Shown here piece by piece: positions 19,171 through 45,674 of a stretch of 46,590 nt of DNA (positions are counted from its first letter, which is position 1; the number at the start of each line of letters is the position of its first letter). The notes beneath the pieces are model-generated. The model ran no database searches and was not told where the DNA came from. It saw only the letters and a program-made list of their open reading frames with translations. The position numbers were made by a program, and so were the translations under genes. The stretch is from Porphyridium purpureum (taxonomy: Eukaryota), in contig VRMN01000032.1 of the NCBI GenBank assembly GCA_008690995.1, positions 1-46,590 of the forward strand, read 5' to 3'.

Positions 19171-21345
19171 ATGGGACCAAACCCGCGCCCTCCAGGTCTG
19201 CGCGGACGCGCCGGAAAACATGTTGCTAGAAAGAAGTGTCGAGCTGGTGAACGCAATTGCGAAACCCGAATAGCACCGACGTACGCACAAACAGCAGCGA
19301 TGAATACAACGACGGAAGTCGAGGAACAAGATCCATTCATAAGTCTGAAAACTGGCGCGGCAGCATCGAACACGTTCCCGGACAGTAATGTGGATGCTTA
19401 TGTTACATCCATGGAAACCGTTGCGTCGTTTTTGTATGAAAGCGAAACCACCGTGATGCAGCCAACGACGACTGGCGAAGGCCTCAATGCACAGCTGCCC
19501 ATTAACCCCGTCGATCGCATATGTTTTACGCCATCGGATGCGACTCAGGACATCAGCTTCGAAACAGTTTACCCGACGGCAACCACTGCGCGAATAGTAT
19601 GCCCTGAATCAAAAAGCCCCACCGGGATCCGCGCAAAGACCTACTCGATGAATATTTCGATGAATACTTCGATGACCAAGCAGACATCTAAATTGAAGAA
19701 GCGCAACGTGACACAGAAGCCGTATACCAAAGGAAGTATATGTGATCTTGACCTCGTGAGATTTTTTCGACAAGGGACGGCGCCGCTGATGCCTTTGACA
19801 ATTACGGAAGAGTGTTTGGCAGCGATGGATTCATTTGCAGCGATGCGCGACCCCAAGCGCGCGGCGCCCAACCATGTCGACAATGATCATCCGATGGGAA
19901 TCCGAGATACCGCTCTCAATGAGACGCGCGGTACGGACCATGGACGCAACGTTGTGGTACCACAGACACAACAGACGAACGCATGGTATACGGATTACTA
20001 CACGTCTAACACATCCCCGTCCACCAATGGCTTCGCCTTCGCGTACATTTCAAAGTGCATGACTAAGCTGAGTTCATCGCACATCCTCGAATTGAAAGCA
20101 GCGCGTGAACGAGCTTTGACGTTGACCTACACTACGATCCGGCGATACTTATTCATCGGCGTCTCGCTTATCGCCCCGCTGGCTGGCAATGATATGCTAT
20201 CACATGACTTCGCTGGACAATTGAAGGATACAGCATTTCCAGACGACGCAGGTGCTTGCGCTGACTTGACTTACGATTTCCTGAAGTCCCTCGACGCAAT
20301 GAATATGTCACCAGAGCTACAAAGAAAAATCCTTGTTCGAAGCATGACACGATGTCTCATCGGGCATCAAGCTTGGTCCGTTTTCCTGAACCCAGCGGCG
20401 TTTCCCATCAAACATATTCCGAATGCGCTCAAAGACCTGGGCGTCATCGATATCAGCGAGTTCAAGGACGTGCATTCCTGGGTATTCGTCGAACTGATCG
20501 CAACCGGATTGCGCATATACGCAGTGCTATATGCGACGATCTGCTCGCTCCAACCCATAACGTCATGCGAAAATGACCAATCAGAGGAACGATGGACACC
20601 GGAACATTTCGAAAGCATCTTGATATCCGAATCTGCAGCGAATCGACACTTCGAACAAGCGACGTCGACTATTCTCTCGTATATGCTGTCCTGCAACCAT
20701 GCTTCCAACGAACCGGCATGTTTGATTAACGAATCTCAAGTCGAAGACAGTCCGCTGCATTTACGGACACGTCGATTGCTGACGCACTTCCAGACACTCA
20801 AACCCATGCGACGAACTAACTGCGTTTTGCATCCCAACAAACCAGCGCTCTTTACCGACACATACACAGGCATCATCGACTTTCTCAAGTCCATGCAGCA
20901 ATCAAGTATGACGCTGCACAGAGCGATGAAGACGCTGAATTCGGGATCGCTACCAGGTCAGTGGGGAAAACCGTTCCCATCGTCGGCGATTTTATACACC
21001 CGCGGCTCTAGAAGCGATGGTTTTGATCCATGTCTCGTCGACGACAGCAAGCGACGACTGCTCGAGCAACGAAAAGCCTTATTCGACGCAAACTTTCTCA
21101 GACTCTATCTCCGAAACATCATCGCCGCTTTACCGCAGATTCTGCCACAGTACAAGATGGCATGCACGAATACGGATACGGACGACGTCGAAGTACTTCG
21201 CCGAGGCATATGGGAAGCCGTGATAGCTTTCGGGAAGCAAACGCTGATCCATGTCCTCACTGATAAAGCGTTGAGCATTCCCTTGCCCTCGAAGACGCGC
21301 AACGAATACGACGACGACGATGACTGTTTTGCAAATTTCCTTTAG
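19171..21345 (+). CDS. Transposon accessory protein of unknown function (~680-725 aa)
   Basis: Long uninterrupted ORF (19087-21345) inside the TIRs, divergent from the other two ORFs. Candidate ATGs at 19171 and 19300. Thr/Ser-rich N-terminus, helical core, acidic tail. No family recognised. Confidence 0.7.
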   Translation: MGPNPRPPGLRGRAGKHVARKKCRAGERNCETRIAPTYAQTAAMNTTTEVEEQDPFISLKTGAAASNTFPDSNVDAYVTSMETVASFLYESETTVMQPTTTGEGLNAQLPINPVDRICFTPSDATQDISFETVYPTATTARIVCPESKSPTGIRAKTYSMNISMNTSMTKQTSKLKKRNVTQKPYTKGSICDLDLVRFFRQGTAPLMPLTITEECLAAMDSFAAMRDPKRAAPNHVDNDHPMGIRDTALNETRGTDHGRNVVVPQTQQTNAWYTDYYTSNTSPSTNGFAFAYISKCMTKLSSSHILELKAARERALTLTYTTIRRYLFIGVSLIAPLAGNDMLSHDFAGQLKDTAFPDDAGACADLTYDFLKSLDAMNMSPELQRKILVRSMTRCLIGHQAWSVFLNPAAFPIKHIPNALKDLGVIDISEFKDVHSWVFVELIATGLRIYAVLYATICSLQPITSCENDQSEERWTPEHFESILISESAANRHFEQATSTILSYMLSCNHASNEPACLINESQVEDSPLHLRTRRLLTHFQTLKPMRRTNCVLHPNKPALFTDTYTGIIDFLKSMQQSSMTLHRAMKTLNSGSLPGQWGKPFPSSAILYTRGSRSDGFDPCLVDDSKRRLLEQRKALFDANFLRLYLRNIIAALPQILPQYKMACTNTDTDDVEVLRRGIWEAVIAFGKQTLIHVLTDKALSIPLPSKTRNEYDDDDDCFANFL

Positions 21346-22740: not shown

Positions 22741-22808
22741 CCGAAGCAACTGTACTATGGTATGGCCGAACCGCAGGGCCCACCCTACCTGAAAAACGCC
22801 TCTAACCC
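22741..22808 (+). repeat. 68-bp dispersed repeat, copy 2 (identical to 5774-5841)
   Basis: Exact match; ends ctctaaccc(t) directly against the truncated copia fragment. Confidence 0.92.
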
Positions 22809-22816
22809 TGCGAGCG

Positions 22817-23605
22817 GTGAAGTCACCCGGCGAGAAGATGAATGCTGACGCTATATTGGATGTTCAAGTCGAACATGGGCATCTGAAAATACGCGAGCAT
22901 GTTGGGAGGCTGCTGTGGTTGGCCAGGACGGTCAGACCGGATATATCCTACGCAGTTGGAGTGGTGGCTCGGTATGTGGATAGCTGGAACGTCGCAGCTG
23001 AGAGACTCCTGGTTCGCGTCATGCAATACTTGAAGGTGCCTCGTGAGCCACTTGAGTATTTGCGGATGACGTCATTGAAGATCAGCGACGTAAGCGTCTT
23101 GGGCTATGCTGATGCCGACTTTGCTGGATGCCCGGAAACGCGCAAGTCAACGTCTGGGAGAGTGACGTACTTGGTCGCGGGTGGAAACAAGTATCTGGTC
23201 GATTGGAGCTCCAGAAGGCAACGCTTTGTGAGCTCTTCGACCTCTGAGTCTGAGATGGCCGCTCTGGAAGAAGCGGTGCAGTTATCTTTGTTTCCGGCAT
23301 TGTCGTTTCTTCGAAGCGTGCAAGAGGGGGATTATGCGTTGACCCTGCTTTGTGATAGTCAAGTTGTTCTCCGTGCGGTCGAGATGGGCTACTCGCCAAA
23401 GTTGCATCACATGGCAGTGACCAGAGCCACGGACTTGGCGTGGATACACCAAGTTTGCGAGAAGCAAAAGCTGGTGAGATTGGAATATGTGAGGACGGGG
23501 GAAAACGTGTCCGACTTGATGACAAAACCTTTGTTTCCGGAAGGTCATATCAGGTGTTGGACTATGTTACGCGTCCCTCAGATCGGAAGGAGGAGCATGG
23601 ATTAA
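22817..23605 (+). mobile_element. Ty1/copia pol remnant (RT C-terminus and RNase H), 5'-truncated
   Basis: VGRLLWLARTVRPDISYAVG, GYADADFAGCPETRKSTSG, DWSSRRQRFVSSSTSESE, LLCDSQ and YVRTGENVSDLMTKPL are canonical copia RT/RNase H motifs. Confidence 0.92.
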
Positions 23606-24338
23606 AAGTGTTCCGGTCCGAGAGACGCCCTGGGTGTACACCCGGAGGTACGGCGTCTCGGAATTGTTTGAGGTACAGGGGCTTTTTCGCCCGCGTGGTT
23701 TTTTACCCTGTACCTCTGGTTTTGTGTATTGTTGTCTTTCGCCCCGAGGAGCCGCAGTCGCGTGTCCGAGGGAAGCAGGAGCCGCTTGGCGGCCGGCCAG
23801 CACCCATTGAGCCGCTTGCTGACGTGGCTGGCTGTGGCTTCGTTCTGTGGAACGAACGGAGGAAAGCCCAGCCTTTTGGGAGAAATAATTTCTCCCTTCC
23901 GCGTCAAGGACAGCAAGGACGGCGGGGTATATAATGGGCGCGGGCCCGTGCGGTTCCCCGGATTTCTAGAGAGCGGAAGAAGTAGAGGCAAGGGAGAAGG
24001 ACACAGAGAATAAAAGAGGAGTTGGTTCTTTGGTGTCGGTGCCTGGGCGTGGTCGTTGGAAGGCGTGGGGCCTTTTGCTGAGCCTGTGTAGCAGAGCCAG
24101 CAGCACATCGTGTCTGGGGGGTTTCGGTGCTCTTAGAGCACTGAAGGCAGACGGCGGCTTTGTCCGTTACGACACCCTGCCCCTGTCGAGACCGGTGCTG
24201 TCTGTGCCGACGCGAAGGGCAATAGTAGAGGCCCTATACGTTGGATTTTCCACGCCCCGGGTATTCGTCGTCTGTGTTGTGTGCGTCGTGTGGTTGTGTT
24301 CTCTGTGCTGTGTGCGTCGTGTTGCTGGGGTTCGGTCA
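23598..24338 (+). mobile_element. Probable 3' LTR of the copia element
   Basis: Polypurine tract GGAAGGAGGAG (23585-23595) followed by TG; internal TATATAA (~23928) and AATAAA (~24008); a candidate end ..TCA at 24338 where the neighbouring ORF is cut. There is no second LTR to confirm the boundaries. Confidence 0.5.
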
Positions 24339-25520
24339 TCTGAGAAGGGTTGTGTCATCCGGGTTCGTGCGCTTGTCATCATCAAGCGTGCGAGAATTTA
24401 AAGAGGATTCCGCGGAAACACAGCCCGACAGTAAAGTCGTCTTCGGCATTGAGTAAAACGCATTCCCTTCAAGGGTACGAGCTAGCGCCGATGCTCGCAA
24501 GAGCCACAGTTGACTGGCTGAAAAGCTTACCATTGTAGACGCACTACGCAGTCGAACGATGCCATCATCGAATCGACCTACGCAATGCGCTCGCAGAAAA
24601 TCCACGGCCACGTACGATTGTTTCTCCAGCTTCGCTGGGGCATGGTCCAGCACCACGTTCATCAAGTTTTGCACCGCATGTACAACCCCGCTTGGATGCA
24701 TTCTAACATATTCCGACAAGGAAATGCCAATTAGTCTTATACAGTAAAACTCTAGCGCCCGCGCCCAAGTTTTGCGCCTTGCACGGATCGTGGCCTCTGC
24801 TAAACATGTAAAATGACGATTGGCAAAAGGATTCACGACCTCTGAAGCCATCTCTTGAGAGTGGCCTTGCACCGGAAGCATCAAGAGGTCTGGTCGGTGA
24901 GTATGCACAGTGCGAATACACGCACGAACAAACTTCACATACGTATCCACAACACCAAGAGATAGCTCCGCACCCGGACAAACATCTTGCAGATTACAAA
25001 AGAATTCTCGGTCGCCCTCGTCTGGATACCAACGGAGTTTCAGGGCCGTCGCCGCTTGTACTGTGTTGCCATTGTCATCCATTTCCTCCTCACCGGCATC
25101 AGCACGTGTAGCGAAATACTTGGTCACATGGTCTGGAAAAGGAAGGCTGCTTGTAACCACCATGCGCGACACCTTCTGCTCCTCTGATTCGATGTGATAT
25201 AAATGTCGCAAGCGGTTTAGCCCTTGCTCAAACCATACACAGTCCTGCGATACGTAAAACTTTGCAAACTCGGCAAATCTCTCTTGGACATATGCCAACG
25301 CGACAAACTTGTGCACTTTTACACAGTGTCTTTGCAGACGCTTCCGCGCAGCTTTTCGTGACGCAGCACTCTTCATGTCAACACTGTACGCGTATGTGCA
25401 AAGATGGCAGCACAAGCCAACTGCGTTGATCCCAGTGTTGATGCAATTGTTCCCATGCCGCATGACGTTGCTCTTCTTCGTGAACTCCTGTCAACAACCA
25501 CTCCCGCACTTGTAGCCCAT
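24336..25520 (-). pseudogene. Zinc-finger protein pseudogene, 3'-truncated, of uncertain family (possibly transposon- or telomere-linked-helicase-associated)
   Basis: Extending ORF 24336-25463 upstream gives MGYKCGSGC*QEFTKKSNVMRHGNNC (stop at 25491-25493), then CCHLCTYAY..RLQRHCVKVH. The ORF ends at the putative LTR boundary. Confidence 0.5.
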
Positions 25521-26114: not shown

Positions 26115-26782
26115 TGGACCAGCACGGCCACCACGCGCTCAAGTGTCATCTCGGCCCGTCGCGGTACGGTCGGCATGCACTGGTGGTCGACGCCGTGGCA
26201 GCCTTTGCGCGCGCCGCTGGCTTGCCGGTGGAGCGCGAGGTGCGCCTTCCCGGCGCGGCAGACCTGCGCCGGCCGGGCGACCTGCGCGTGGACAGCACGG
26301 GTCGATGTGGCGGTGGTGGTGCCCGACCGCACCGGCACCAGGCGGTCCGACGGAGCGGCACTCGCGGCAGCGGCGCGTCGCAAGCTCCTTCCAGGATGCT
26401 GCGCGCACTGGCGACGCTGCTGGCGTGTCGTTCCAGGCGGTCATTCTGGACACGTACGGCCGGCGCGAACAGTGCGGAGCCGCGTTTCTGGAGACTCTGG
26501 TGGCGGCGTACATGCGGCACCGTGGAGTAAGCCAGATGCTGGCAAGCACGGCGCTCCACCGGTCGCTGTCGCTCGCAGTATACCGCTCGGTGGCGGCGGC
26601 GGTGCTTCTACGGTACCCGGGCCCGACTCTGCCAGTTGCCTCGCAGCACTGGCTGGAGACGGGCAGGCGCCTCTTTGTAGGCGAGGTACTCTCGGAATCG
26701 GAAGCAGAGTCGCACTGACTCTGCTGATACATAGGTACAGAGCTTAGGCCCTTTAGATTTATAATGTAAAACGATTTCAGAG
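26115..26782 (+). mobile_element. Family A copy 3, 5'-truncated (REL region and 3' UTR)
   Basis: Near-identical to 4031-4697. Retains HGHHALKCHLGPSRYGRH (knuckle and RH motif). Ends aaaacgatttcagag and joins unique DNA. Confidence 0.92.
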
Positions 26783-28563
26783 CGCGCTGGGCGGTGCGCG
26801 GCATCATATATTGCATGCTACAGAAGGTTGGTCGCATGAGCATTGATGCGCCGCCGCTTGTAAAATTGCCGAATGCCGTCGTGCCACTGTGTGACAAAGC
26901 CGAGGCTACCGAAGCTTGGTGTGACCTCTTTCTGCCTCTGAGGTGCGGCTGACCATTTCGCGCTGCTCGTACTATGCCTGCGGGTATTTCAGCAGCGGAA
27001 TTCGCCTAGTCGGTGCTGGCACCGTCCAGCGAAATGCGCACACGTCGAGCAACCACGGGAAAGACAATCGCACAGAATTAACTATCGCGATGGTCTTTTC
27101 GCAAGCCGCTCAGGCCGGTGCGTCACGAGGACAGCCGGGCAGAGCCATTTCCGACGCCACAGAGCCGTGGGCCGTACAAATGAGAATTGAGGTAATCGTG
27201 CTCCCGAATACCCATGTCGCGGGCTCTACCCGACACTCCGGTCAGTGGAGCCACCGCGTCGTGCGTGAGGTACTCTGGCGGGAGAATTGGAGCTGCGGCA
27301 TGCACCGCGGCAAGGCGACACTGGCGCTGCGTGCAAGCATGAAGACGGCCGATACCCTGTCACCATGAACGCCTTCTGCATGCGCCTCGTGTCAGGCTGA
27401 CGCAGCGGCAAATAAGATCTGGGCTCCTCGAACGACCACCTGAATAGCTGGCGTGGACACGCAAAGGCGTGCAGTGTGTCGTCGCGTTGCTGTATACTTG
27501 AACGGGTGAGACTAGGCCTATTCCGTCAAGCTGTGGCCCGTACCCGCACCAGCGCTAATTGTCATGCAAAACACACAATGTTCAGGCTTTGCAATTCTCA
27601 CGAACGACGGTTCACGGACCGACGTTCTGCACATTAACTACAGACGTCGGCGAGCACCACTTGTCTACGCATGCTTTTCGTGAAAACCTTGCCAGTAATC
27701 TTAGCTAGGCTTTCTGCTACGCGCCTTGTCTGACACGGCCTGCAACGGAGCTTTGCGGCCATGCGCACAGAACAGCGTGTTTGTCGACAGTCCAACACGC
27801 CGACTAACTTACTCTCCGACACTCGCCATCCGTACTGGCGAGCGCCGCAACAGCCGCACCAGTGGCCGAGTGCGGGCTCCGCCCACGATCTGTGTTCCGT
27901 ACGTACGCCTCTTTCGGCCACGCACGCCTCTTGACCTGGGAACCGAGCTGATGCTTTCAATGTATCAGCGAGTATACAATTTCTGTCGCGTTGCCGGCTC
28001 CTTGTCCGCGCTTACCTCGATCTCTTGTCGCAGAGTCTCCGCAGAACCACGCGCGAACAAACGAGAGGTCGCATGATAATCGAATCCAGTCGATCGTTTG
28101 TGCTTGGCCCACACAGACGCGTACCTTCGCGGGGACAGCAGACTTTTCTGCTTCCCCTGCATCCTCGCGCGCTAAACCAAAGTGTTCGACTGCCAAACCG
28201 CACAGAGCCGCTGTCGATGTACTCGCCGCGAACGCGCCGACAATTTCCTCCAGAACGGGTTCGTCGCGGCGCATGCGCGAACAAGCGACAATGCGCCACC
28301 TGGCACAATAATCTTAGCCTCGAAGGCTCACCGCGGTCTCGCCTCAGTTCAGGTGCATCGGAATAGAAGGACGCCGGTGAATGAGGAGCGCAAGACTCTG
28401 TTCTGCTAGCACGGTTTCTGCGTGATGGCAGATCGGCCACCTCCGCACTTGGATGATCATGCAAAGCGGGAGACTTCGGTCTGGTCAGGCCTTAGATCTT
28501 CACGTTTGGAATACGTACAGGAAGGCAGTAGCGTCTTTACGTACATTTCGCCTTGCGCAAACG

Positions 28564-31546
28564 CTAATAGCCTAATTTTTTCAACCTACTTTGCGCGTTT
28601 CCGTTTTCCTGTTTTGCGGCCTTGCGGTACCACTCGACCGCCGCGCGCTTGTCCTTGCGCAGCCCGCCGTCCCCGTTCTCGTAGCATACGCCCAAATTAT
28701 ACTGCGCGTCTGCGTCTCCCTGTTCCGCGGCCTTGCGGTACCACTCGACCGCCGCGCGCTTGTCCTTCGGCACCCCGCCCAAACCGTTCTCGTAAAAATG
28801 GCCCAAATTGAACTGCGCCACTGCGTCTCCCTGTTCCGCGGCCTTGCGGTACCACTCGACCGCGGCGTGCTTGTCCTGTGGCAGCCCGCCCTCCCCGTTC
28901 TCGTAAAAATGGCCCAAATTAAACTGCGCTCTTGCGTTTCCCTGTTCCGCGGCCTTGCAGTACCACTCGACCGCGGCGCCCTCGTCCTGCACCAGCCCAC
29001 CCAAACCCATGTCATAAAAATAGCCCAGCTTGAACTGCGAGTAGGCGTCTCCTAAGTGCGCCGCCTTGCGGTAGCACTCCATCGCTGCCGTGAGATTCTT
29101 GTTGGTGAACTCCTCGGTCTGGCCACGTTGCTGCCAGTCTGCGGGGTCGCGGCGCGCCTGCTCCGCGGCGGCGGCGGCGCGTTGGGCGGCAAGTTCCCGC
29201 TCCTTCCGCGCCGCGCTTGCTCCGCGGCAGCGGCCTCTCTTCACGCTTCCGCGCAGCAGCAGCTTCCGCTTCGCGCCGCGCGGCAAGGTCGCGCGCCTCT
29301 TTTTCGAGGCGCTCGTGCTCCTCCGCGAGTGCACGACGAACGGCGGCTGCGTGCTCCAGAGCCTGACGATCGCGCTCCGCTTTCTTCTTGTCGTCCTCGA
29401 GCCGCCTCTTCTCGGTCTCATTCTGTTGCCGTCTCAGCGCTGTTTGCTCTTCGGTCTCCACCACCTTGAGCCATTCCGACCCCGCGGGGCTGCCGAGCTT
29501 TGCGGCCTTGGCATACCACTCCTTCGCCAGGCTCCAGTTCTGCGGCACGCCCCGCCCAGAGTGGTGGCAGCGGCCATACTCAATCATGGCGTCCGTGCGT
29601 CCTTTCTCAGCGGCTGCGCGCACCCAACCGGCGCCATGTTCCAAGTGCTGGCTCCTGCCGTGCGAGCCGTCGAGCAAAATCTTGCCCAGCCGGAATTGGC
29701 CTTCCGCGGCACCTGATTCCGCTGCTAGCTTGAAATACTCATACGCGTGCGCCATGTTCCCTGCTTTCTCCCATTCCTCTGCGTAGCGGAGCTTGTCATC
29801 GGCACTCAGTACTTGCGCTTGCACAGGCCGGGATCCACTTGGCCCCGCCGAACTGCCTCCGGTGCTCGACACTGCGGCTCCTGACCGACCAGATGCCACC
29901 GTAACGTGCGAAACGCGTGCACCCAACGCACCAACCTCTACCGTGCTCGCGTCAGAAGAGGACGCAATGGCAGAGACACAGGCCTGCTCCTTGCAAAATG
30001 CCACCGAAATTTTCGCCATGCTCGGGCGCTCTCGAGCATTCATTCTCAAGCATGCTTTAGCCGTGTCTACTAACCACGTCGGCCAGGCGTTTGCGTATGT
30101 ACTTTTCTTCAGTCTGTGCCACGGCACGCCCTTCGTTGGATCGCTGAGCGTCCTGTCGATTTCCGCCGATGTCGCTGAGCCAAACATGGGCTCGCCCAAT
30201 ACCATCTCATACAACATGACTCCGAACGACCACACGTCACAAGTCCGGTCATACCTGTCACCACGCATGACCTCTGGCGCCATGTACGCATCCGTTCCAG
30301 CCTTTGTTTTCGCTTGTGACCCCGTGTTCTTCACGGTTGCCAACCCAAAGTCGCTGATCTTGGCCGTGTATTCCTCCGTGAGCAGAATATTCTGAGGCTT
30401 GATGTCTCTGTGGATCAGTTTCGCAGAATGCAGGTACTTGAGACCATTCACGATGCCAACAAAAATGTCCAACAGCTGCGCGCGGGGCAGCACTCCTTGA
30501 ATTCCATTCCGAAACATATGCCTGTCCAGTGAGCCTTTCGCGGCGTACTCTAAGAGAATGAACGACGCCCGACGACGCTGCCCATCACTCTCGAGCATGT
30601 AGAACCCGCCACGCGTCTGGATAATGTTCGCGTGAGCTAGCCGCCACATGGTCCCAAGCTCGTTCTTCAATTCAATCAGTGCATTCTGCGTTGGCGTCGG
30701 TACTTCCTTAATGGCCACCCTTAAGCCTAAGCACATGCCTCTGTAAACAGTTCCAAAACCTCCAGAGCCCAGCATAACGTACTCGTCGAATTCGTCACGC
30801 TCTTTTCGGACATGCGACACGTCGACATACCATGGCTCCGTTTTCGTGGGTCCCGTCGACAAGCCGCTAGAATTAGAAGCGTCTGTGTACGGCTTATGGA
30901 TGTCCACGCGGAGACTGTGCATCTGAAGAATAGCGCTCTTTTCTGGTCCGGAACCAAGTTGCTCTTCGAGCTTGGGTCGATCATTGACCCTGTCCTTCTC
31001 CAGAGCCAAAAGTATTTGCTGGTGCCTATGTTCTTGCACGTGTGTGCCTCGTTTGTGAGAGTCCGCAAGCTTGAACAAAACGATGCGCGACAACTGAGCT
31101 TCGAGCTTGTCCAGCGTATCGCTGCAGGTCTGAAATTCGGCCTGGTAGTTCTTTGCCCTCATCACGCGCCAAACCTTCTCATTCCAGCGGTCTGCGGACG
31201 AGAACTTTTCCACAAGTGAGCAGGTGGATTCGAGCGCGGACGTCAGATCCGCCAGGCACTCGAGCAGGCGACCGTGCTGCACCTGGTCTGTACCCGACCT
31301 CATCTTTTCGCCTTGGCCACCAAAATAATCAAGCAGCACGCTCTCAATGCCGGCGGCCTGCTTTGCCAGCTGCTTACATGTGTCGTGCATGGCTCGCGCG
31401 GCCTGCGCCAGCTCCACGATGACCTTGATGACCGCGTACGCCGCCGCAACGTACGGCAAAACCTCGCCGACATCGTTGGCGATCGTGCCTCCGACTTTGA
31501 GGGCTTCCTCAAACGCCGCGCGCTCCGCTGCGCGACCTGCCGCCAT
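28564..31546 (-). CDS. MLKL/HeLo-like four-helix N-terminal domain, TKL-type protein kinase, coiled coil and Sel1 repeats; one frameshift near 29230
   Basis: N-terminus EVLPYVAAAYAVIKVIVELAQAARAMHDTCKQLAKQ..LESTCSLVEKF..WRVMRAKNYQAEF. Kinase motifs LGSGGFGTV, VAIK, HRDIKPQNIL, DFG, YMAPE, DVWSFG. Sel1 repeats in ORFs 29012-31717 and 28564-29421. ATG at 31546. Confidence 0.85.
28600..29050 (-). repeat. Four highly similar 111-bp (37-aa) Sel1 repeat units
   Basis: gcggccttgc(g/a)gtaccactcgaccgc at 28616, 28727, 28838 and 28949 (exact 111-bp period). Protein unit GDA.AQFNLG.FYENG.GG.P.DK.AAVEWYRKAAEQ. Confidence 0.95.
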
Positions 31547-32410
31547 GACACCACAGACAAGCCGCAGCGAGCCGCACAGAATCCGACGTTGTTCTCGCCG
31601 CTTGCGAGCGTGTGAACCCGGCTTTCCAAAGACAGTGCAACATAGATTTCCCCGTCCACTCTGTGCGCAACCACCACGCGCACCGATAATGCCAAACGGT
31701 CTCAACCCCGTTTGCACTTGCTGCTTGATTTAAGCCGCGACGCAGGTGTCACGGGAGAAGCCGAAGCGATTCATGCTCTGCTCAGGGCACAGCGCTCTAC
31801 TCACCGTTCACACTGCGCGTAGCCAGAGACGCATGCCACCAAAACAACGGCATGCAAATCAGCCGCGCAACTCGGACACGCGCAACAGAAATCGCATTCT
31901 GCTAGTCCAAACAGTGCCCAAAACGGCCCCGCTCAGGGCAAAGCGCCAACGGCGCGTGTAGAAACGGTGGCCACCGAGCGGAAGCTGCCGCGGTGTATCG
32001 CAAAAACCGGGCACTTTAGTAGAAGCGCGCTCGCTCACGCAAGAACGCGCCAGGGGCGCGGGAGGGAATAAACGACGCGTGTCAGCCAGCGGCGAGGCGC
32101 GCGTTTCGACGTGATGCGGCTGCCCGCGCGGTTGCGTACCAGCGCGGCGCGGATTCGCGCGTGTAGAAAATCGGGGTGGGCTAGCGAGGTGGGGTACACT
32201 TGTGAGCGGTGGCGGGACAGCTCTTTCGCGGTGGCAGCAGAGTCCCGCATCACGCACAAGCCGCTTGCCGCGCAAAGGTCTTCGGTGGTCAGCCGGCAGA
32301 ACACTCGGTGCGGCATGGTTTGCTCCTTGGAAGCGGCTGTCCGAAAACTCAGACGCATGCGCCCAACGCTTTTTAAACGCCTTTCATATACACATGCCTG
32401 CAAACATAGT

Positions 32411-34050
32411 CTAGTCCTTTACGGACGCGTCGATGGATACTTTCAACAGCCGCCAGCGGTTGATCGCGGCCGCGAGCTCGATGGGGCGCGGCCGCGAGTA
32501 GTAGCCAATGCCTTTCCACCCGCTCGGAGCCACGGCGTCCAGACCCTTCGCGTCCAGCGCAGCCTCAACACGCGCAACCAGCTTCTTCATGCCTTGCACC
32601 GGCGCGGTCTGCTTGCTCACCATCTCCACATACTGCATGGCGTCCGCAATCAAGCGCGTCTGTCCCAATTCAACGAGCTGCTCGAGCGCGCGAAGGTTGA
32701 TCGCAAACTCCTCCGAGCCATACTGAATTCGCCCCATGTCACGCACATACACCTTGCTACCGCCGGCGGGTGCCAGCGAGCACAAGTCGATCTTCCTGTC
32801 CGAATCCAGCGAGGCAGACAGCCCCGCGTCACTGTCCAGCACGGCCGTGCTCACCTGGTGCGCGCCACCGCGACTTTGCGCACACGAAATGCTTTTCGCT
32901 TCGTCTGAAACGCCATAAGCTTTGTAGCAGTCCATCATGATCACGGTATCGGCAACATCAAAGAACGCACCGCAGCTGCCCACTACCCAAAGGCTCGAGA
33001 TCCCATGCGATTCGTACAGCACGCGGACACGTTCCAAAAAGGGCGTGATTGGCTCCTTGTGCTTACTTGCTAGCGTCGACATGACCTCATCTTGATACAT
33101 AAAGTTGTCGCGCCCGTGTCCTCGTCAAAGATAAGCAGGTTACATCCCATTGCCAGCGCTTAGGCGATATTCGCCGCTTAGCTCGTACTGCCAGATGCGT
33201 CGGCAATGAAAAAGTCACTTGTGGCACGCCCGAATGGCAGGTTTGAAATAAACGGCGAGATGTCGAGCGACGCCACCGCGCGACCATCTTCAGCGCGCAT
33301 TTTCGACGCAAAAGCCAGGCACGAGACAAACTCTCGCCCATCGCCGGGCACATGGTCATATACGCCTAGCTCAATCGCCTGCAACAGCGTCGACTTTCCG
33401 TGAAAGCCGCCTCCAACAATGAGATTCACTCCCTTTCGAATGCTCATGCCGGTCAGCGTCTTGCCGCTCGGCAGTGCCGCGCTGACGCGCAGCACGTCTG
33501 GCGAGGAAAACGGGAGCGCAGACGCTGAAGGCATCGGAAGCTCACTCGCACCATGCAGTCGCGGCAAGATGGCGACATCCGGAACGAAAGCCGCCATGCC
33601 AGCCGGTTCCAGCATGCCTCGCAGGGCGGCTTGATCTTCCGCACAGATCACATGCTCATGCGCGGCCAGCGCGCTGTACTGACGCTTGGTCTGATGGTCA
33701 TTCTCCTGCTCCAAGCTAAGCTACAAAAAGCTTTGCTGAACAAGGCGCAGAACAGTCTCGCTCAGGATCGTAAGCGCCTTTCTTCCTTCGATTGCACGAC
33801 CCGATGCGGGCAGGCCGAGCTCAAAGCGTGCCCCCGACGTCCACTCTGATAAATAATCGGCGCACACAAGCTACGGGGACGACCGCTCTAGAATACACGC
33901 GCCCGGATGCGCCATCCGCAGATCGCTACCCTTGGACGCCGCCCAGCCAGAACCGGACGCGCTTGGCGCTTGGCCATAGCTGGTAAAGCGTTGAGCTCGC
34001 TCTTCAAATTGATGCATTATTATACGTAGATATCCGCTGCCAGATGGCTA
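32411..34050 (-). pseudogene. Predicted ABC-class ATPase (PF09818-like) pseudogene
   Basis: GVNLIVGGGFHGKSTLLQAIELGVYDHVPGDGREFV, RAEDGR, DISPFISNLPFG, SGSTS*AANIA*AL..LIFDEDTGAT, KEPITPF, ELAAAINRWR; upstream ARFELGLPASGRAIEG. Stops at 33178-33180 and 33160-33162 and a frameshift near 33105. The 5' limit is approximate. Confidence 0.85.
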
Positions 34051-34371: not shown

Positions 34372-37300
34372 CTAGAGCACCGTCATCAGGGTGAACGCAA
34401 TGTAGTCTTCGTAAGTGACGTTTGCTTGCGAGACACAAATGGTTGGGGCACGCACCATCATGCCGCCGCGATCATATGAGTACTGACCGATATACTCGTG
34501 CAGCACGGCGAACTCGGCGGGGAAGAGCTTGACGCGCAAATACGTCCGTCCACCTTCTCCAATCAACTGAAGTGCATCCGGCCAGCTGATGCCTTCGTAC
34601 GGTAGCGCGTCCCACCGACCCACTCCATCTCCAAGACCCGCCACGCCCAAATCAACATTGCCATCCACGTTCAAAAAGTCCACACTCAATGCCTGCTGCT
34701 CCTGCTCCGCCGACGTTAGTCCTTCGAACGTAAAGTTGCATGTCATGCTCGGTTCGTTCAAAACCGCATCATACACACCTTCGAGGCGGAAGATCTGCAG
34801 GCTCGGCTTGCCCTTCTTGATTTTTTCTACCGTAAACGTTGGCAGGAGCGAGGTTGCATCGTAGAAAGCTTGCGGGTACCTTTGGTGCACATCACTCGCC
34901 TTAGGTGCCTTGGCGCTGATCACATCACGACGGAACTCGAACCGGAACGCTTCAATGCGCTGCACCGCCTGATTTGCGTTACACACGCGATCAGCCACTT
35001 CAAACGCCCGGTAAAATCCAATCGGACAAGGCGGCTGCATACGATCTTCATCATTGTACGTGAGCAAGGATGCCGTGACCTCCAAAGGATCGCAGTTGTC
35101 TTCCGCCATCGGCAGCCCGAGCGACGCGGTGCTTATATCAGCTCGACACGACACAATTTGAATTTTCGGTACGCTCACCCACTCAGGCTCATCGTAGTCT
35201 GTGCGAACCACAAGCTGATTTGTCGTATCTGTTTGGTCGCACTCATCCTCGATGGTGTACAAGCGCGGTACGTTCCAACCCTTGATCCCTTGTCCAGAGC
35301 AAACAAATCGAATATCCGAGTCGGAATATGACACACTTAGATCATCCGAGCATGGTGCGTTCACCGAATTGAGGTCAAATATTGTCGCCGGCGCATTGTA
35401 CCCATCAGCCACTGGCTCTTCACAAGCAAACATTTGTGGAGCGATACGTTCTGGTGCAGACACTCCCACGGCTTTCTTGGTGATAATCATTTGCACCGGG
35501 TCCGCTACCTGCCCGCACGCATCCGTGTACCTGAATGTGCGCCTGATCTTCTCTTCTCCGCAGCCATCATCTTCGAGGAGTTCATCTGTGGCACCGATCG
35601 GATTGCCGCCTTGGCATTCCACATCAACCACAGCCACGCGCGTTGTCACTCGCGCAAGCGAACTGGTACACGGCACCTCGATATCTCGCGGTCGCTCCAG
35701 AACAGGCTGCACTTTCTCCCGCGGTTCTTCCAACGGCGGAACTGGGTTGTAAAACTCCCCGCTGAATTTGGCCGCCGCCTCCATGTTGGTTTTGGTCACG
35801 ATGCGCTCTTCCGAAGCCCGCAGCGTTGCATCATTTGTCGCGTCCACTATGTCTGTTCGTGAGAAAGAAACTTCGACAAGCTCGGTCCTGGAAATAAATC
35901 TGACCGTCTTGCACTCCACTTGCACTGTAATCTGATTGTTGGCACCGACTTTTGCACTTGTGTACTCACAATCTGTGTTTTCCTCGATAATCTTTAGCTT
36001 TTCTTCTGGAGACAGACCGAAAAATTCCAAGTCCTTGGCCGCCGTCGCTTCGAAACTTGCCAAATTCAACTGGGCGTCCTTCATTTGCTCGTACATGTCT
36101 TCCGCGTTCTTGTATTTTAGTGCATGGTCTTCACCGCATGCGGGATCCTTATCAATCCGAATCACCTCCTTGCACGGTTTCCCCCTATAAAGGCAAGACA
36201 GTCCTCCGCTTAAAATGGCCAGGAACTTGTCGCACGTATCAACATACTCATACACTTCCCATTGTCGACATCCAAACTCATCCCGTCCAATCTCCACGGG
36301 AGGGGAGAGTATTTCGCGAGAACTCGGGATCAAATTCTTTACCCACTCACAACCCGTCTTGAGGACTGACTTGAACTTGTCTGCAAAGTATGCTTCGAGA
36401 TTCTCAGGATTCACCTCAAAGAGTTGCTTCCACAGGCTCTCAAAGTTGTCGAGATTGCATTGCGGCTGACGTAATTCAAAAAAGGATTCCACAAGCTCCA
36501 CTGAACACTCAGCAATTTCACCGATTGCGCCTACAAAGGCCTCCGCACCTTTCCGGAAGGACTCCTCTCTGTCAGCAAGATAATTAAAAAGGTTGTCCTT
36601 CTCCTCCTTCACTGATTCGCCAGCCCGATCCACGGCATCGACGATTTCTTCTGGCACAAGCTTCTTCAAAGGAATATTCGGCATATTGATCTGCCAGTTC
36701 CAAGCCGTCCACGGATCAGTCAATTGACCATCCACAGATATTTCAGCTGTGGCAGGCAAGCCCAGAACGATGACGGCGAGGTCAACCGAACCGCTCACAC
36801 GGCCACTCTGAGCACCGAAGCCCAACTCCAGAACCCCCGCCACGCTCGCCAGGCTGGCAACCGTTATGCGCGCCGCAATGCGCGTCAAAAAGTCACCACC
36901 AAATCCAATTGCATAGAAGAAACCGCAACTTTCCACCTTCAAAGATAAAAGTGATAGCGCTTTCAGGTCAAGGCATGTGTCAGTAGTGCCAACGCTGAAC
37001 AAGATTGCGCCTGTTGAGCCAAATGCCGCCGCAATCTTCTGCTTGAACGGATCATCGTAACCTTCTAACGCAGGCGAAGTGCCACACCCACTCAAATCGC
37101 TTGAGGTACGCAACTGGATCTCGTCCGGATTGAGAATTTCCAATAAGATATTACCATTAATGTCGAGCGCATTGAATATCTTGCACGTGAGCGACAGTCT
37201 CCACGAAAACGCCCTCAGGTTCCTATCGTCCCAAAGCACGGCAAAATCTTGCGTGACTGCCAGCGTCTGGTCTCCCAGCATGTCTTTAAGCACGCCTCCG

Positions 37301-38547
37301 GAGCCGCCCATCTTGAAATTAAACCCTCCAGAATCCAATGTTGCAAACACGCCCCGCGGGCTGCACTCATCTTGTGCTGGCTCAGTGTGCCGCAAGAAAA
37401 TGCCGCTCTTTGGACTGGGCAGCTCGAACTTGTACACTTCATCTCCACCACGGTACGTGGTGATGGTCATGCTTGTTCCTTCCACGGTTTCCGCCAAAAG
37501 ACTCTCACGGTCCAAAGCCAATTCGACCATTAATTCCGCACCAACCGTAAAACCCGACTGCCTGTCGTCGAAGAACTCTAAACCGCCTAGGATGCGTCCA
37601 CGAATCCAAAAATTGACGTTCGGAAGCAAAACCACGAAATTGGAGCGTCCTGACCAGTACCTTGTTTCCGACTCTTGTCCAAAGCGGCCTTTAAACGAGT
37701 ACGCGATTCCGAGCGGCTTGAAGGTGAGGAAAGGCGGAAAAAGTGGGATCGTCAAAATCTGTGCAATTTTGCCTTGTCGATCAATGTGTAACGCGAAGCC
37801 GTCATCCCATCCACCGCACACCGACGTTGCAATACAGACGCGCTCTCCCGCGAATTCGGTTGCTTCGCCAGGAATAACCTCGCCCACGCTTCCCCCACTG
37901 CTCTGCGCGTCCACGAGATTGCGCACGACTGGCGGAAGTTTTTCGAGCACTGGGAAATCCAGCTGCAGCTCATTGGTAAATGTCAGGTCAGCAAAGTAAT
38001 ACACTTCGTCGTCATCCAGTGGAAGCTTGTCGCAATTTGACGCACCGTCACCCCTCGCTCGCAGCTCGCGGCCGAGAAGTACATCCTCTGGGCCTTGCAA
38101 CAAGTCCGTCGTAATATCCACGAGACCTAGATCTTTCACTCGAGCCAAGAATGGCACTTGCTGCTCAAGGAACGCTTCAAGTACCATCAAAAAGCCCTCG
38201 CACTGGTTAGTGCCCGAGACGCCCACATCCGCCTTCACGGTCATCGCGCATCCCGCGGGATAGTCGACCTGCACGAGCCCGGGCACCTGCACGCGCGTCA
38301 CGGCCGAGCTCGCACACCCGCCGGCCGACGGTGCCCAGCCCGTGGAGCTCGAAAACACCACATCCTTATCATTGCACTGCGGCGCGTTCCTCCGGAGCTC
38401 ATTTGTCGAAGAACACTCTTCCGCCCTCTGCACGCCCAGAATACTGCGGTCAATGGCTACCGATGGAACTGCTGCCACGCACGTCGCACCCACCACAAAC
38501 AGCAACGCCAGCCAAGCCACATACATCCTTCCTTTAGTGCCCACCAT
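34372..38547 (-). CDS. Large secreted or surface protein (1391 aa) with signal peptide, beta-rich N-terminal half, coiled coil and C-terminal Cys-containing HYR-like repeats
   Basis: Signal peptide MYVAWLALLFVVGATCVAA. Three repeats of the type IRRTFRYTDACGQ..QMIIT / RLYTIEDECDQ..NQLVV / AEDNCDP..YRAFEVADRVCNANQAVQRI. Uninterrupted ORF. Confidence 0.8.
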   Translation of the reverse strand: MVGTKGRMYVAWLALLFVVGATCVAAVPSVAIDRSILGVQRAEECSSTNELRRNAPQCNDKDVVFSSSTGWAPSAGGCASSAVTRVQVPGLVQVDYPAGCAMTVKADVGVSGTNQCEGFLMVLEAFLEQQVPFLARVKDLGLVDITTDLLQGPEDVLLGRELRARGDGASNCDKLPLDDDEVYYFADLTFTNELQLDFPVLEKLPPVVRNLVDAQSSGGSVGEVIPGEATEFAGERVCIATSVCGGWDDGFALHIDRQGKIAQILTIPLFPPFLTFKPLGIAYSFKGRFGQESETRYWSGRSNFVVLLPNVNFWIRGRILGGLEFFDDRQSGFTVGAELMVELALDRESLLAETVEGTSMTITTYRGGDEVYKFELPSPKSGIFLRHTEPAQDECSPRGVFATLDSGGFNFKMGGSGGVLKDMLGDQTLAVTQDFAVLWDDRNLRAFSWRLSLTCKIFNALDINGNILLEILNPDEIQLRTSSDLSGCGTSPALEGYDDPFKQKIAAAFGSTGAILFSVGTTDTCLDLKALSLLSLKVESCGFFYAIGFGGDFLTRIAARITVASLASVAGVLELGFGAQSGRVSGSVDLAVIVLGLPATAEISVDGQLTDPWTAWNWQINMPNIPLKKLVPEEIVDAVDRAGESVKEEKDNLFNYLADREESFRKGAEAFVGAIGEIAECSVELVESFFELRQPQCNLDNFESLWKQLFEVNPENLEAYFADKFKSVLKTGCEWVKNLIPSSREILSPPVEIGRDEFGCRQWEVYEYVDTCDKFLAILSGGLSCLYRGKPCKEVIRIDKDPACGEDHALKYKNAEDMYEQMKDAQLNLASFEATAAKDLEFFGLSPEEKLKIIEENTDCEYTSAKVGANNQITVQVECKTVRFISRTELVEVSFSRTDIVDATNDATLRASEERIVTKTNMEAAAKFSGEFYNPVPPLEEPREKVQPVLERPRDIEVPCTSSLARVTTRVAVVDVECQGGNPIGATDELLEDDGCGEEKIRRTFRYTDACGQVADPVQMIITKKAVGVSAPERIAPQMFACEEPVADGYNAPATIFDLNSVNAPCSDDLSVSYSDSDIRFVCSGQGIKGWNVPRLYTIEDECDQTDTTNQLVVRTDYDEPEWVSVPKIQIVSCRADISTASLGLPMAEDNCDPLEVTASLLTYNDEDRMQPPCPIGFYRAFEVADRVCNANQAVQRIEAFRFEFRRDVISAKAPKASDVHQRYPQAFYDATSLLPTFTVEKIKKGKPSLQIFRLEGVYDAVLNEPSMTCNFTFEGLTSAEQEQQALSVDFLNVDGNVDLGVAGLGDGVGRWDALPYEGISWPDALQLIGEGGRTYLRVKLFPAEFAVLHEYIGQYSYDRGGMMVRAPTICVSQANVTYEDYIAFTLMTVL

Positions 38548-40061
38548 CCTCTGCGGCGATCTGCTCTCCCCCTCTTTCTACCCACCTATGCCATGCACCA
38601 GCAATTAGACGTGAACACGCCGACGCGGCCGGCGAGGACTTTATATATTCATCGCTGCCTTGATTTGGATATGTGCGCGTCCCGATGTGTCCGTCAATGC
38701 GGATGCAAGATAGCCCACGCAGACAGAATCACAGTTCTGTGCCACGAGAGATACCTCACAAATCCACGGCTTGCGTGACAGGCGACACGCTGTCCGGAAA
38801 AACAGCTGCGCGTCTCACTAGTCACTTGCTCATTCCTGATATGTAATCGAAAGCAAATTTTATTCCCTCCTGCGTTTTTCTCTCTTCCAAAGCAGGTCGC
38901 AACGGCGCGCTTTCTGCACGCGCGCAAAGTGCCTATTCTTCGCGGCGCCACGAGTTTCGAGGGGACTTCGTCTGAAATTTATCACAGCAGCGCCGTTTCG
39001 CGATTTTCGGGCAGCGAGGTACAGCGCGTCGCCAGTGCGCGCGTGAAATGAGCAAGCACGGGTGTAGTTGAACGGCGTCGTTTTGATAGGTTGCGAGCGG
39101 CCGTGTGAATTGAAGAAAGAAGTACAGTGAATCCGTTAAAACTTGTTGGGGTCTGAACTGAGCGAGCGTCTCGCCGCGGGAGAATTGCAGCGGTCCGTAC
39201 TCAAGAAGCGAAAGCTTGGGGAAGAATGTTCTGAGTCACTGATGGGTGACCGGGGCTGATTCCCGCAGCTCAGGGAAGAGAACAGACCGTAAATTGGAAG
39301 ACCTCTGAGGGGGGTTATATAAGTGTAGGACTAGTGAGGCTGGTTCTTTTTTTGACTCCTTTTTTGGGTAGGAGCGTCGATGTAGGGAGAAGATAAAGTC
39401 ACTTTTTCTGGAACCTTGCGGTGTCGGCGCTGCTCGTTGGTTGGTGTTGTGACTGCTCGGGAGGAGCTAGAAGGCGGTGGGTATCGCTAGGGGTGACTCG
39501 TTTGGTTCACGCGTGCCCATCGAGTAAGTCACCAGCGTCTTACATTCCGCGGTAACAAACTTCACACTTCAATTGCAGAACGATGTACCTCAGATGTTAA
39601 TTAATGCGTGGGCTCGCGTAGTTTAACACTGCGCAGATCTCTGCAGCGCACAGCTTTGGTGCCTTGAATTGGGGAGCGTGTGCTTGGCGCGCTTGGGCTG
39701 TCGTGGTGCTGTGGCTGCATATCTCTGGATGCTCACGCGGGTGCTAGGTATACGTCCGCTTTCGGTGTCACAGCGACCCTGAAATCTGTGTTGCGGACTG
39801 GCGGTAATTCCCCTCGACGCATCCGTGCAGCTGGAGCTCCCGAACGCAAAAAACGGCTTGCTGGGTCGCGCTTGACACGCTGCCACAGCGCCCGTGTTTA
39901 TGACTTCACAATTATCGTTCTGCGAGTCTGTCACTGGTCGTGATGCCGAGAGGAGATCTGGGTGTCGCGCGAGTGATTCGAAAGGTGCCAAACAAACGCC
40001 GCCAATCCGCTAGCTTCTCAGAGCGCAAGCGGAGCACACCAGAGGGCTCCTCAATCTGCGC

Positions 40062-43283: not shown

Positions 43284-45674
43284 TCATTTCGCCTTCGGCA
43301 AACACTGATAGCCTAGTTCTTTCAACCTATGTTGCGCGTCTGTGTTTCCCTGCTCCGCGGCCTTGCTGTACCACTTGACCGCCGCGCAGCTGTCCTGCGG
43401 CAGCCCACCCTTCCCGTCCTCGTAACAAGCGCCCAACTTGTACTGCGAGTCTGTGTGTCCCCGTTCCGCGGCCTTGGTGTACCACTCGACCGCCACCTAC
43501 CTGTCTACAGGCAGCTCATCCCGCCCCTCCTCGTAAAAATAGCCCATTTTGTACTGCGCGTCTGCGTGTCCCTGTTCCACGGCTTTGCGGAACCACGCGA
43601 CCGCTGCGCTACTGTCCTGGCGCAGGCCGCCCAATCCCTTGATACAAAAGCAGCCCAGCCGACACTGCGCGCAGGCGTCTCCCTTTTCCACCGCCTTGCG
43701 GTACCACACCAGCGCTTCCGCAAAATCCTCGTTGTCCTCGGCAGTCCGACCACGTTTCTGCCAGTCTGCAGCGTCGCAGCGCGCTTCCTCGGCGGCGGCG
43801 GCCTCTTCTTCGCGCCGCCGCGCCTTAGAAAGTTCTACTTCGGGTTGTGCGGGAAGATCTCGCGCTTCTTGCTCGACATCAGCACGCTCATCCGCGGCTG
43901 GTTGAATTATGGCGTTTGCTGACTCACCAGATAGAACCGTGACCTGTGAAATATTTCCTGCCAACGCATCGACCGCTGCTGTACTGGGGCCGGATGGGAA
44001 CGCGGTATACTGGGCGGTCTGTGACTTTGGAGCCGCAGTGGCGCTCTCCGCACCCATGCGGTCATAAAACTCCCACCAGATATCCGATACTGTCGGGCGC
44101 TCCTCGGGCGTCGTCCGCAGACACGCCCTTGCTATATTCACAACCCAGGCCGGCCACTGTTTTGCGTACTCCGACCTGTTTAGTCTGTCCCACAGCACAC
44201 CCGCTTTCGGATCTTCGAAAATCCTTAAAATCTCGATTTCCGAGATTCAGGTCCCATACACCTTCTCGCCGAGCAACATTTCAAACAACATGACGCCGTA
44301 CGACCAGACGTCACTGGCGCGGCTGTACTGGATACCACCGAGCACTTCTGGAGCCAAGTGACCACAAGTGCCAACAGACGCGTCCGTGCGCGAAAAGAAC
44401 TTTCCACACCAGACAGTCCGAAATCGCCAATCTTGGGTGTCAAGTCCTCCAGGAGAAGAACATTCTGTGGTTTCATATTGCAATGGATGATATTATTTCC
44501 ATGCAAATACTTCAACCCGTCTACAATGGATCGAAAAATCGTGAGCAGCTGTTCAGGCGATCGTAATTCCTTTCCGCTGTCGAGAAACATGTGCATTTCC
44601 AACGAGCCCTTCGCAGCGTACTCGAGCACAAAAAGGGCATTCAGCGTTATGCATATCCATCTGCGTCCGCGGGTAAAACCCGCCACGCGTCTGCACAATG
44701 TTTTCATGTGAAAGCCTCCATATGATCCCCGGCTCGTTTCTTAGCTCAGCCAGCGCTTTGATCCCTGCCAACTTTATCTCCTTGATTGCTACTTCAAGTC
44801 CCATGAACATGCCCTTGAAAACGTTCCCGAAGCCAACGGCGCCGAGAGGAGATAGTATGATCCTCTCGCCATTCACATTCGTAAGCTTCTCAGCAATTGC
44901 CGCCTCAACATACCAAGGTTCACTCTGATCAAGCACCTTTGAATCAAGCCCCGAATCCGCCGCTTTCAAGTATGACTCGGTGACTTTCACTTCCAGGCCG
45001 TGCATACTGAGCACAGCACTTCTCTCCGGACAGGATCCAAGCTCGTTCTCCAATGTTTTTGTGTTGCTTAGCCCGTCGTCTTCGAGAGCGCGAACCATCT
45101 CGTCAGGGCCGGTTTCCAACCTGCGCAGAACGGCTTCCAATTCACCAATCACAACTTGGTGATCCCGGTTCTCTTGTCCACGATTTTGCGCTTGCTCGGA
45201 CGTCAAATGGAATACGAAACTACGCGCCAATCGCAACTCGAGCTCGACAAGGCGTGCGTCGCACGTCAGGAACTCACCCTGAAAGTTTTTTGCCTTCAAT
45301 ACGCGTATCGCGTGTTCGATCCCCTTCTCTGAACCGGAGAATCGCTTCAAAAGGGCGCACGCGGACTGCACTTTAGACTCTAGCTCGCTCATGCATTCGA
45401 CCAAGCTCGTGTCTTTCATATCACACGCGCCGGTCGTGCAGTTTTCGTCATTCGTGTCAAAACACGAACGGAGGGTGTTCGAGATGCTCGAGACCCGCTC
45501 CGCTAGCCTTGTGCACGAATTGCCATATGCCTTCGCGGTCAGCGCACACTCTACCAGAACGTTGGTCAACGCGAAAATGGTCTGTGCAAACGGAATCAGT
45601 TCCCCGACGTCACCGGCCACGGCGCCACCTAATTTGAGGCCGTTCGCCGCCTCGGTTCCAATGACAGTTGCCAT
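43284..45674 (-). pseudogene. Paralog of the MLKL-like/kinase/Sel1 gene, disrupted
   Basis: Same domain order: DVGELIPFAQTIFAL..CTRLAERV, GAVGFGNV, VAIK, LEYAAKGSL, HCNMKPQN, DFG, APE, Sel1 repeats. Two compensating frameshifts (~44640 and ~44400) and in-frame stops at 44247-44249 and 43497-43499. Confidence 0.88.

Follow-up and report, generated by a model that had tools for sequence, protein, structure and literature searches.

A red-algal family of candidate immune receptors combining an MLKL-related N-terminal domain, an intact protein kinase and Sel1 repeats

A 46,590-nt window of the Porphyridium purpureum genome (contig VRMN01000032.1, to which all positions below refer) carries on its minus strand, at 28564..31546, a gene whose product joins a helical N-terminal domain related to MLKL, a protein kinase with intact catalytic motifs and two blocks of Sel1 repeats. 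The protein record of this main gene, P0003, bears the source name Porphyridium purpureum. Judged from its sequences, the group of proteins to which it belongs is a real, expanded and diversifying family with a credible MLKL-related head. The function that we tentatively favour for it is that of an intracellular one-protein immune sensor, in which the kinase would free the MLKL-related domain to oligomerise and damage a membrane. This reading ranks first, its main rival is a receptor kinase whose helical bundle does not kill, and neutral expansion of a general signalling kinase comes third.

Results

Domain organisation of the main gene

The open reading frame (ORF) that begins with the ATG at 31546 runs for 844 residues in one frame, and the C-terminal part of the protein lies in another. 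Pfam identifies in the first frame a kinase domain (Pkinase, residues 257-513, E-value 1e-52), a Sel1 repeat (residues 652-686, E 4e-11) and a sub-threshold MLKL_N match (residues 81-156), and in the second a TPR-like cap (a weak TPR_8 match) with four Sel1 stretches (Sel1, E 6e-55). The domain order MLKL_N, kinase, Sel1 is confirmed in the main gene. An earlier interpretation made from the letters of the DNA, here called the sequence-only reading, had described much the same layout: its helical N-terminal domain of ~160 residues is found as an all-helical domain of ~165 residues, and its two Sel1 blocks around a coiled coil are located as block 1, a coil judged from composition and a four-unit array.

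The intact catalytic motifs that it had seen in the kinase are likewise borne out, with a complete set of GxGxxG, VAIK, alphaC Glu, HRDIKPQN, DFG and APE. Pseudokinase status, which is a trait of MLKL, is thus absent, VAIK, alphaC Glu, HRDIKPQN, DFG and APE all being intact, and the kinase motifs are also intact in every full-length paralog checked. Pfam matches no NACHT or NB-ARC nucleoside triphosphatase (NTPase) in P0003 or its paralogs, and the tripartite order proposed as an effector-switch-sensor layout with a kinase instead of the NTPase is real.

Relation of the N-terminal domain to MLKL

A relation of the N-terminal domain to MLKL and HeLo domains is supported by sequence profiles and by language-model features. 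Pfam MLKL_N is matched by all 12 aligned family N-terminal domains at E<=1, the best match reaching E 7.6e-6 and 25.9 bits. When 1.84 billion proteins were scanned in full with HMMER, ten were returned, namely seven of the family, one repetitive artefact and two proteins, P0013 and P0014, that score above the MLKL_N cut-off; P0012 was dropped as a relative, being a repetitive chance match. The family profile aligns with P0013 and P0014 at probabilities of 96.9% and 95%, respectively (hhalign), and P0014 in turn matches human MLKL N-terminal structures with E 2.8e-6, so that the link to human MLKL is transitive. In the ESM Atlas, the top feature match of the domain (0.94) is a cluster with MLKL_N in 36% of its members, and the top structural row is chordate MLKL at a template-modelling (TM) score of 0.58, which lies below the naming bar of the tool, with PUB2_N at 0.55. 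A word-seeded search with the N-terminal profile returned four family proteins and nothing else, and no relatives were found in JGI metagenome or viral contigs.

The part that matches MLKL begins near residue 30, after an extra N-terminal helix, and opens with the hydrophobic residues 29-47 (Kyte-Doolittle 19-mer mean 1.84), which are no more than suggestive of membrane permeabilisation or cell death. Of 14 family sequences, 10 have a hydrophobic 19-mer with a mean of 1.5-2.0 where the first bundle helix lies. Self-association of the domain through helix 4 and the brace is predicted by a four-copy model of residues 1-210, which scored 0.57 (0.00, 0.66 and 0.57 in its three runs) against 0.34 for the best control and places the interface at residues 149-183. 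The score demands that runs share at least 10% of contacts at a predicted local distance difference test (pLDDT) value of at least 55; in calibration, which was microbial and used two copies, 21 of 30 solved homo-pairs attained the mark and none of 23 single chains did, and the four-copy model falls outside that calibration. Arabidopsis MLKL tetramers likewise form through bundle and brace (10.1101/681015).

Turnover within the family

The survey of relatives places the main gene among at least 17 P. purpureum sequences that are annotated and distinct (P0003-P0009, P0011, P0015-P0020, P0038, P0113 and P0114). Counts drawn from annotated proteins are lower bounds, and P0017/P0113 as well as P0009 and P0005, each on two contigs, may be haplotigs. 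Six members are truncated or without part of a domain (P0005, P0007, P0008, P0009, P0011 and P0038) and may be pseudogenes or assembly errors. Beyond the species, P0010 of Erythrolobus australicus has the full layout at 34-50% identity. The window itself holds a broken paralog, the first fragment of which, P0005, is on record on two contigs; the 3′ flanks of this paralog and of the main gene are 76% identical (43159-43715 vs 28419-28974).

Variation in repeat number, which the sequence-only reading had proposed to survey, is present among paralogs, whose C-terminal arrays range from 1 to 11 units; of the short-read contigs, none extends across the array. P0003 and P0004 have 4 and 11 units, although their identity is 93-97% over five of the seven segments compared; it falls to 79% at the N-lobe of the kinase, and the annotation of P0004 leaves out most of the N-terminal domain. 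P0019 and P0114 have 4 and 6 units with 2 differences in their first 740 residues. The arrays of the latter pair are without the usual Sel1 consensus, yet differ by two whole units. Segments also appear to have been exchanged. P0015 is 50-57% identical to the main gene in the N-terminal domain and kinase, 95% in Sel1 block 1 and 93% in the coil. Because coil identity is only 12-70% in the remaining paralogs, with P0004 excepted, the likeness of the coil in P0015 is not explained by constraint alone, and we therefore infer from these comparisons that P0015 is a mosaic that arose by recombination between paralogs. Trees agree weakly with this, joining P0015 and the main gene in block 1 with support 85/87 (midpoint-rooted). 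Block 1 is 72-97% identical in seven of the 12 P. purpureum paralogs compared and wholly or partly absent in the other five.

The C-terminal Sel1 array

The last four units of the main gene are tandem units of 111 bp, as had been claimed, but with 72-88% DNA identity and 60-84% protein identity between them the description "near-identical" was overstated; Tandem Repeats Finder reports a period of 111, 4.4 copies and 81% matches at 28592-29079. The recurring variable positions listed earlier (AY/AR/AV/AD, GYF/GHF/GVC, L/E/D and DEG/DKH/DKR) are present in the sequence. Internally conserved NLR repeats have been defined at a similarity of 0.7, a mark enriched among NLR-like proteins (PMC13449251), and all eight arrays scored lie above it, with identities to the array majority of 0.73-0.83; this score approximates Psim and is inflated in small arrays, the 0.83 of the main gene coming from four units only.

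Variation among 45 pooled units is greatest at positions 3, 10, 1, 13, 6, 14 and 7. The pool is without P0113, P0019, P0114 and P0010 (an array of 6 units), and the third unit of P0006 is partly garbled. Six of these seven positions correspond to the TPR concave positions 2, 5, 6, 9, 12 and 13 in the register used, in which by our own mapping the unit position equals the TPR position + 1. Those TPR positions contact ligand on the concave face (PMC1261162), and by analogy the variable positions of the algal array probably mark a binding surface. A permutation test on the variable positions treats related units as independent and does not give a valid probability.

On the four window units, the ratio of nonsynonymous to synonymous change (pN/pS) is 0.95 at concave codons and 0.53 elsewhere, and with three pseudogene units added it becomes 1.01 and 0.66, respectively. 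Of positive selection at the variable Sel1 positions, for which the sequence-only reading had proposed a survey, the four window units, a very small sample, give no sign.

Frame break and expression

The frame change that the sequence-only reading placed at 29230 is real in the window sequence; it consists of ~10 third-frame codons between the end of frame A, near the motif KREE, and the restart of frame B, and resolves into two small deletions that very probably are an assembly error. This conclusion follows from short-read contigs that carry the missing bases and from the match of the restored frame to paralogs. The extra base at 29236/7 is present in all the contig depth there in five of five public runs, and four extra bases at 29199-29206 are present in each of the four runs with coverage there, most contigs over the break being paralogs and not the copy itself. 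The four extra bases are found in a contig of run X1 that differs at 1 letter in 215, and other contigs of that run show 0 differences to the stretches neighbouring the break. The five added bases produce a continuous frame of 995 residues, like those of P0004 and P0015, which read through. A published P. purpureum assembly is a Nanopore-Illumina hybrid (PMC6811547). The annotated intron of 133 nt (29367-29235; 949-residue model) was rejected as a gene-model patch because none of the nine listed joints matches it, the bin depth is 8-10 and paralogs translate the stretch.

Sense-strand RNA reads lie along the length of the gene in all three raw RNA runs. Most of them are 90-95% alike to the gene (810 of 1217, 944 of 1584 and 897 of 1388 in the three runs), and the depth falls to 1.5-10 at copy-specific stretches. 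At the level of the gene family there is expression; expression of this copy is weak at most, and the RNA is that of a strain showing fixed differences. A plus-strand transcript at 27800-28500 (depth up to ~200 in run X22, no clear ORF) converges on the 3′ end of the main gene.

Coordinates and other features of the window

The features of the main gene and of the broken paralog are collected in Table 1.

Table 1. Positions of the main gene's features and of a broken paralog in the window.
Feature	Position	Strand	Basis or remark
MLKL_N-related helical N-terminal domain, aa 1-165	31052..31546	-	Pfam MLKL_N, hhalign, AlphaFold2 (AF2) model
Extra leading helix, aa 2-26	31469-31543	-	AF2 model, pLDDT 72
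Hydrophobic helix, aa 29-47	31406-31462	-	AF2 model; Kyte-Doolittle 19-mer 1.84
Helical brace-like linker, aa 166-235	30842..31051	-	helices in model; predicted self-association surface with aa 149-165
Protein kinase domain, RD-type, Ser/Thr-like catalytic loop, all catalytic motifs	30008..30778	-	Pfam Pkinase and motif positions
Ser/Gly/Ala-rich linker	29807..29986	-	sequence; P0015 identity jumps from ~55% to 95% just after the linker
Conserved Sel1 block 1	29456..29806	-	about three units by eye; one passes Pfam on its own (E 4e-11)
Ala/Glu/Arg-rich coiled-coil spacer	29147..29455	-	coiled coil from composition; length varies among paralogs (alignment)
Frame break	29199..29237	-	vs short-read contigs, lacks 1 base at 29236/7 and 4 bases at 29199-29206; probable assembly error
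TPR-like cap before variable array	29053..29146	-	weak Pfam TPR_8 match; alignment
Four tandem 111-bp / 37-aa Sel1 units, putative ligand-binding array	28609..29052	-	28942-29052, 28831-28941, 28720-28830, 28609-28719
Capping helix and stop codon	28564..28608	-	sequence
Broken paralog (P0005 = first fragment)	43284..45674	-	N-terminal domain, frameshifted kinase, three Sel1 units with in-frame stop, no Sel1 block 1

Elsewhere the window contains two reverse-transcriptase (RVT_1) elements at 337-3708 and 8124-12164 (+), with related fragments near 3818-4702 and 26139-27005. Three long ORFs, at 12626-16657 (-), 19063-21345 (+) and 24336-25490 (-), encode 1343, 760 and 384 residues without a Pfam match at E<=0.1; the first of them may be transposase-like. 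A remnant at 22793-23605 (+), which is not named by Pfam, presumably resembles a Copia-type RNase H in a motif. An ABC_ATPase / MRB1590_C gene at 32400-34000 (-) has in-frame stops and frame changes and is likely a true pseudogene, and a 1401-residue ORF at 34372-38577 (-), which starts like a signal peptide and weakly matches HYR_4C, looks like a large secreted protein.

Discussion

Proposed mechanism

The chain of events that we propose would begin with the C-terminal array, the concave face of which (unit positions 3, 6, 7, 10, 13 and 14) would bind a protein that is foreign or has been modified. Binding would cluster the receptor through the coiled coil and the conserved Sel1 block, and the clustered kinases would then phosphorylate each other, a RIPK3-to-MLKL step within one chain. 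Phosphorylation would free the bundle to oligomerise through the brace, in line with the predicted self-association of the N-terminal domain, and the hydrophobic helix of residues 29-47 would finally insert into a membrane, and the outcome would be a flux of ions or the infected cell's death. A precedent for the combination is offered by wheat Pm13, in which an MLKL_NTD with an intact kinase confers disease resistance (PMC10951266).

A number of observations weigh against this reading. First, the relation to MLKL stands by profile and language-model features, and the MLKL/HeLo likeness proposed by the sequence-only reading holds to that extent, but MLKL was not returned by our own AF2-based fold searches. 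All members score below the Pfam MLKL_N cut-off of 27 bits, and neither phmmer with the N-terminal domain nor hmmsearch with the family profile found an MLKL in the PDB. Two modest AF2 models were obtained, of 240 residues (pLDDT 58, predicted TM score 0.34) and of 165 residues (pLDDT 72, predicted TM score 0.52, from an alignment that included P0013 and P0014); neither had a Foldseek match at E<=0.001, and among the matches listed by the fold searches with both there was no MLKL, RPW8 or HeLo. VIA-align gave generic bundles, the best at Z 10.3 (root-mean-square deviation 3.2, 128 aligned) and Z 11.1 (2.8, 108 aligned), with MLKL absent among the 50 rows listed for each model and the scores within the noise of the tool for helical models. 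The second model joins residues 29-74 into one helix and may represent an open or a wrong arrangement.

Next, the capacity to kill is in question. The superfamily also takes in the PUB N-terminal domains PUB2_N and PUB10_N as well as MCAfunc. An extra leading helix is likewise found in fungal Goodbye-like and basidiomycete MLKL-like domains, where the killing function is described as open (10.1101/2022.03.16.484565), and by analogy the helix leaves it open in the algal domain. Four sequences, P0007, P0011, P0018 and P0014, have a weak hydrophobic helix. One of the three runs of the four-copy model scored 0.00, and the model may have passed through resemblance to structures already solved or because long helices simply pack as coiled coils. 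In plants, MLKL immunity is separable from cell death (10.1101/681015). Finally, the variability of the concave face is general to TPR-type repeats (PMC1261162), its codons in the main gene appear relaxed and not clearly under positive selection in the very small sample of four units, and neither a ligand nor a pathogen nor a death phenotype is known for the family.

Alternative readings

Several of these points would suit a receptor kinase for non-self or stress in which the bundle merely oligomerises, autoinhibits or recruits partners and the output is phosphorylation, not membrane damage, a reading that we regard as doubtful while ranking it as the main rival. The extra N-terminal helix and the superfamily relatives (PUB2_N, PUB10_N and MCAfunc) agree with it, as do the kinase motifs that are kept intact among the full-length paralogs. 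The Arabidopsis tetramer, besides the separability of immunity from death, is auto-repressed (10.1101/681015), and the Pm13 study leaves open whether the MLKL_NTD kills or senses (PMC10951266). The hydrophobic stretch found at the first bundle helix in most of the family sequences speaks in contrast for membrane action, and plant MLKL fragments of HeLo plus brace are cytotoxic (10.1101/681015).

An unlikely alternative to the sensor that executes is a lineage-expanded general signalling kinase, comparable with the mycorrhizal kinase-Sel1 families, in which gain, loss and swapping of repeats would be neutral in a repeat- and transposon-rich setting. By whole-protein likeness the Atlas indeed leads to kinase-Sel1 clusters that are large in Mucoromycota and Parabasalia (0.95-0.98), and kinase-Sel1 proteins reach high copy number in Rhizophagus, where a role in environmental perception is merely proposed (PMC8647823). 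Retroelements and broken genes are present in the window, and pN does not exceed pS. Against neutrality stand the full layout kept in Erythrolobus at 34-50% identity, the internal conservation of the arrays above the mark enriched among NLR-like proteins (PMC13449251) and the pN/pS of 0.53 at non-concave codons.

That the main gene is a pseudogene, with a real break and a Sel1 array not translated together with the kinase, would accord with the broken paralog and the broken ATPase gene nearby, with the low RNA depth at copy-specific stretches and with the two deletions never being bridged by a single near-identical contig, but is very improbable in view of the near-identical and exactly matching X1 contigs, of the agreement between runs at 29236/7 and 29206 and of the restored frame shared with P0004 and P0015.

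Comparison with known systems

The closest tested protein is Pm13, a single chain that like the algal family carries an MLKL-like bundle, a brace and a kinase whose catalytic residues are intact (PMC10951266); the combination by which Pm13-type proteins are recognised, MLKL_NTD with brace and intact kinase, is found in the algal family. Pm13 differs in having two domains and no repeat sensor, and its immune role is proven (PMC10951266), whereas that of the algal family is a proposal. Animal MLKL and Arabidopsis MLKL1-3 share the N-terminal bundle (by the transitive sequence link), the brace, the kinase fold and a brace-mediated oligomer, which is predicted for the algal domain, but they are pseudokinases, have no Sel1 array and are without the extra leading helix. 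The algal protein does not count as MLKL proper, given a kinase that is not dead, nor as an NLR, given the lack of an NTPase; it would work as a blend of the two principles.

The likeness to fungal NLRs (PMC13449251) and to the brown-algal ROCO and NB-ARC-TPR families (PMC3341825) lies in the effector-switch-repeat layout with internally conserved repeats and extends to repeat-number variation, exchange between paralogs and broken copies. In contrast to these, the algal family has a kinase in the middle and no NACHT, NB-ARC or ROC, and its units resemble each other less than the HNWD repeats of fungal NLRs do (80-100%; PMC13449251). Among algae, it is the two brown-algal families that come nearest to a precedent for candidates with repeat shuffling (PMC3341825).

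The sequence-only reading held the architecture to be uncharacterised. No characterisation was found, but the architecture had already been noted in silico, as MLKL-family homologs with Sel1 repeats that were called exclusive to Glomeromycotina among the fungi surveyed (PMC8778642). The fungal and algal proteins have in common an MLKL-related protein with Sel1 repeats, lineage-specific expansion and a function that is unknown (PMC8778642; PMC8647823), and differ in the split Sel1 region, a feature of the algal family. Among the 100 kinase matches listed, none is named Glomeromycota and one is a Mortierellaceae kinase-Sel1 protein at 32%. The nearest non-family kinases among the matches listed are ~27-43% identical and mostly plant receptor-like kinases. 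A 2025 review mentions HELL-kinase fusions, and Sel1 does not occur in its available text (PMC12881547).

The layout MLKL_N-kinase-Sel1 is not unique to red algae. P0111, a metagenome protein of 609 residues in ENA, has MLKL_N (E 1e-19), intact kinase motifs and TPR/Sel1 in the same order, with the differences of a short Sel1 region and no coil. Its N-terminal domain is matched by none of the nine GTDB loci found, and P0111, which lies on a contig of 125,889 bases, may be bacterial or eukaryotic.

Significance

The open-access literature searched yielded no account of the algal family and none of any system related to MLKL in red algae, and the available portions of PMC12115072, PMC13126933 and 10.64898/2026.04.11.717937 do not describe the family, which appears new for red algae as far as the literature search reaches. 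A bolder proposal, possible but held with less assurance than the sensor function of a single protein, is that unicellular red algae possess a repertoire of kinase-switched, NLR-like necroptosis receptors, in which one chain would unite an array as sensor with a RIPK-like kinase and an MLKL-like killer and would be diversified by repeat turnover and domain swapping. If this is true, they would form, with the fungal and metagenome examples, a widespread and unstudied receptor class. A transformation system reportedly exists for P. purpureum, and the idea would therefore be directly testable. Should the N-terminal domain kill, a single-celled red alga would have regulated lytic death wired to a variable sensor without an NTPase switch, which would bear on the origin of necroptosis and on the large mycorrhizal kinase-Sel1 families of unknown function.

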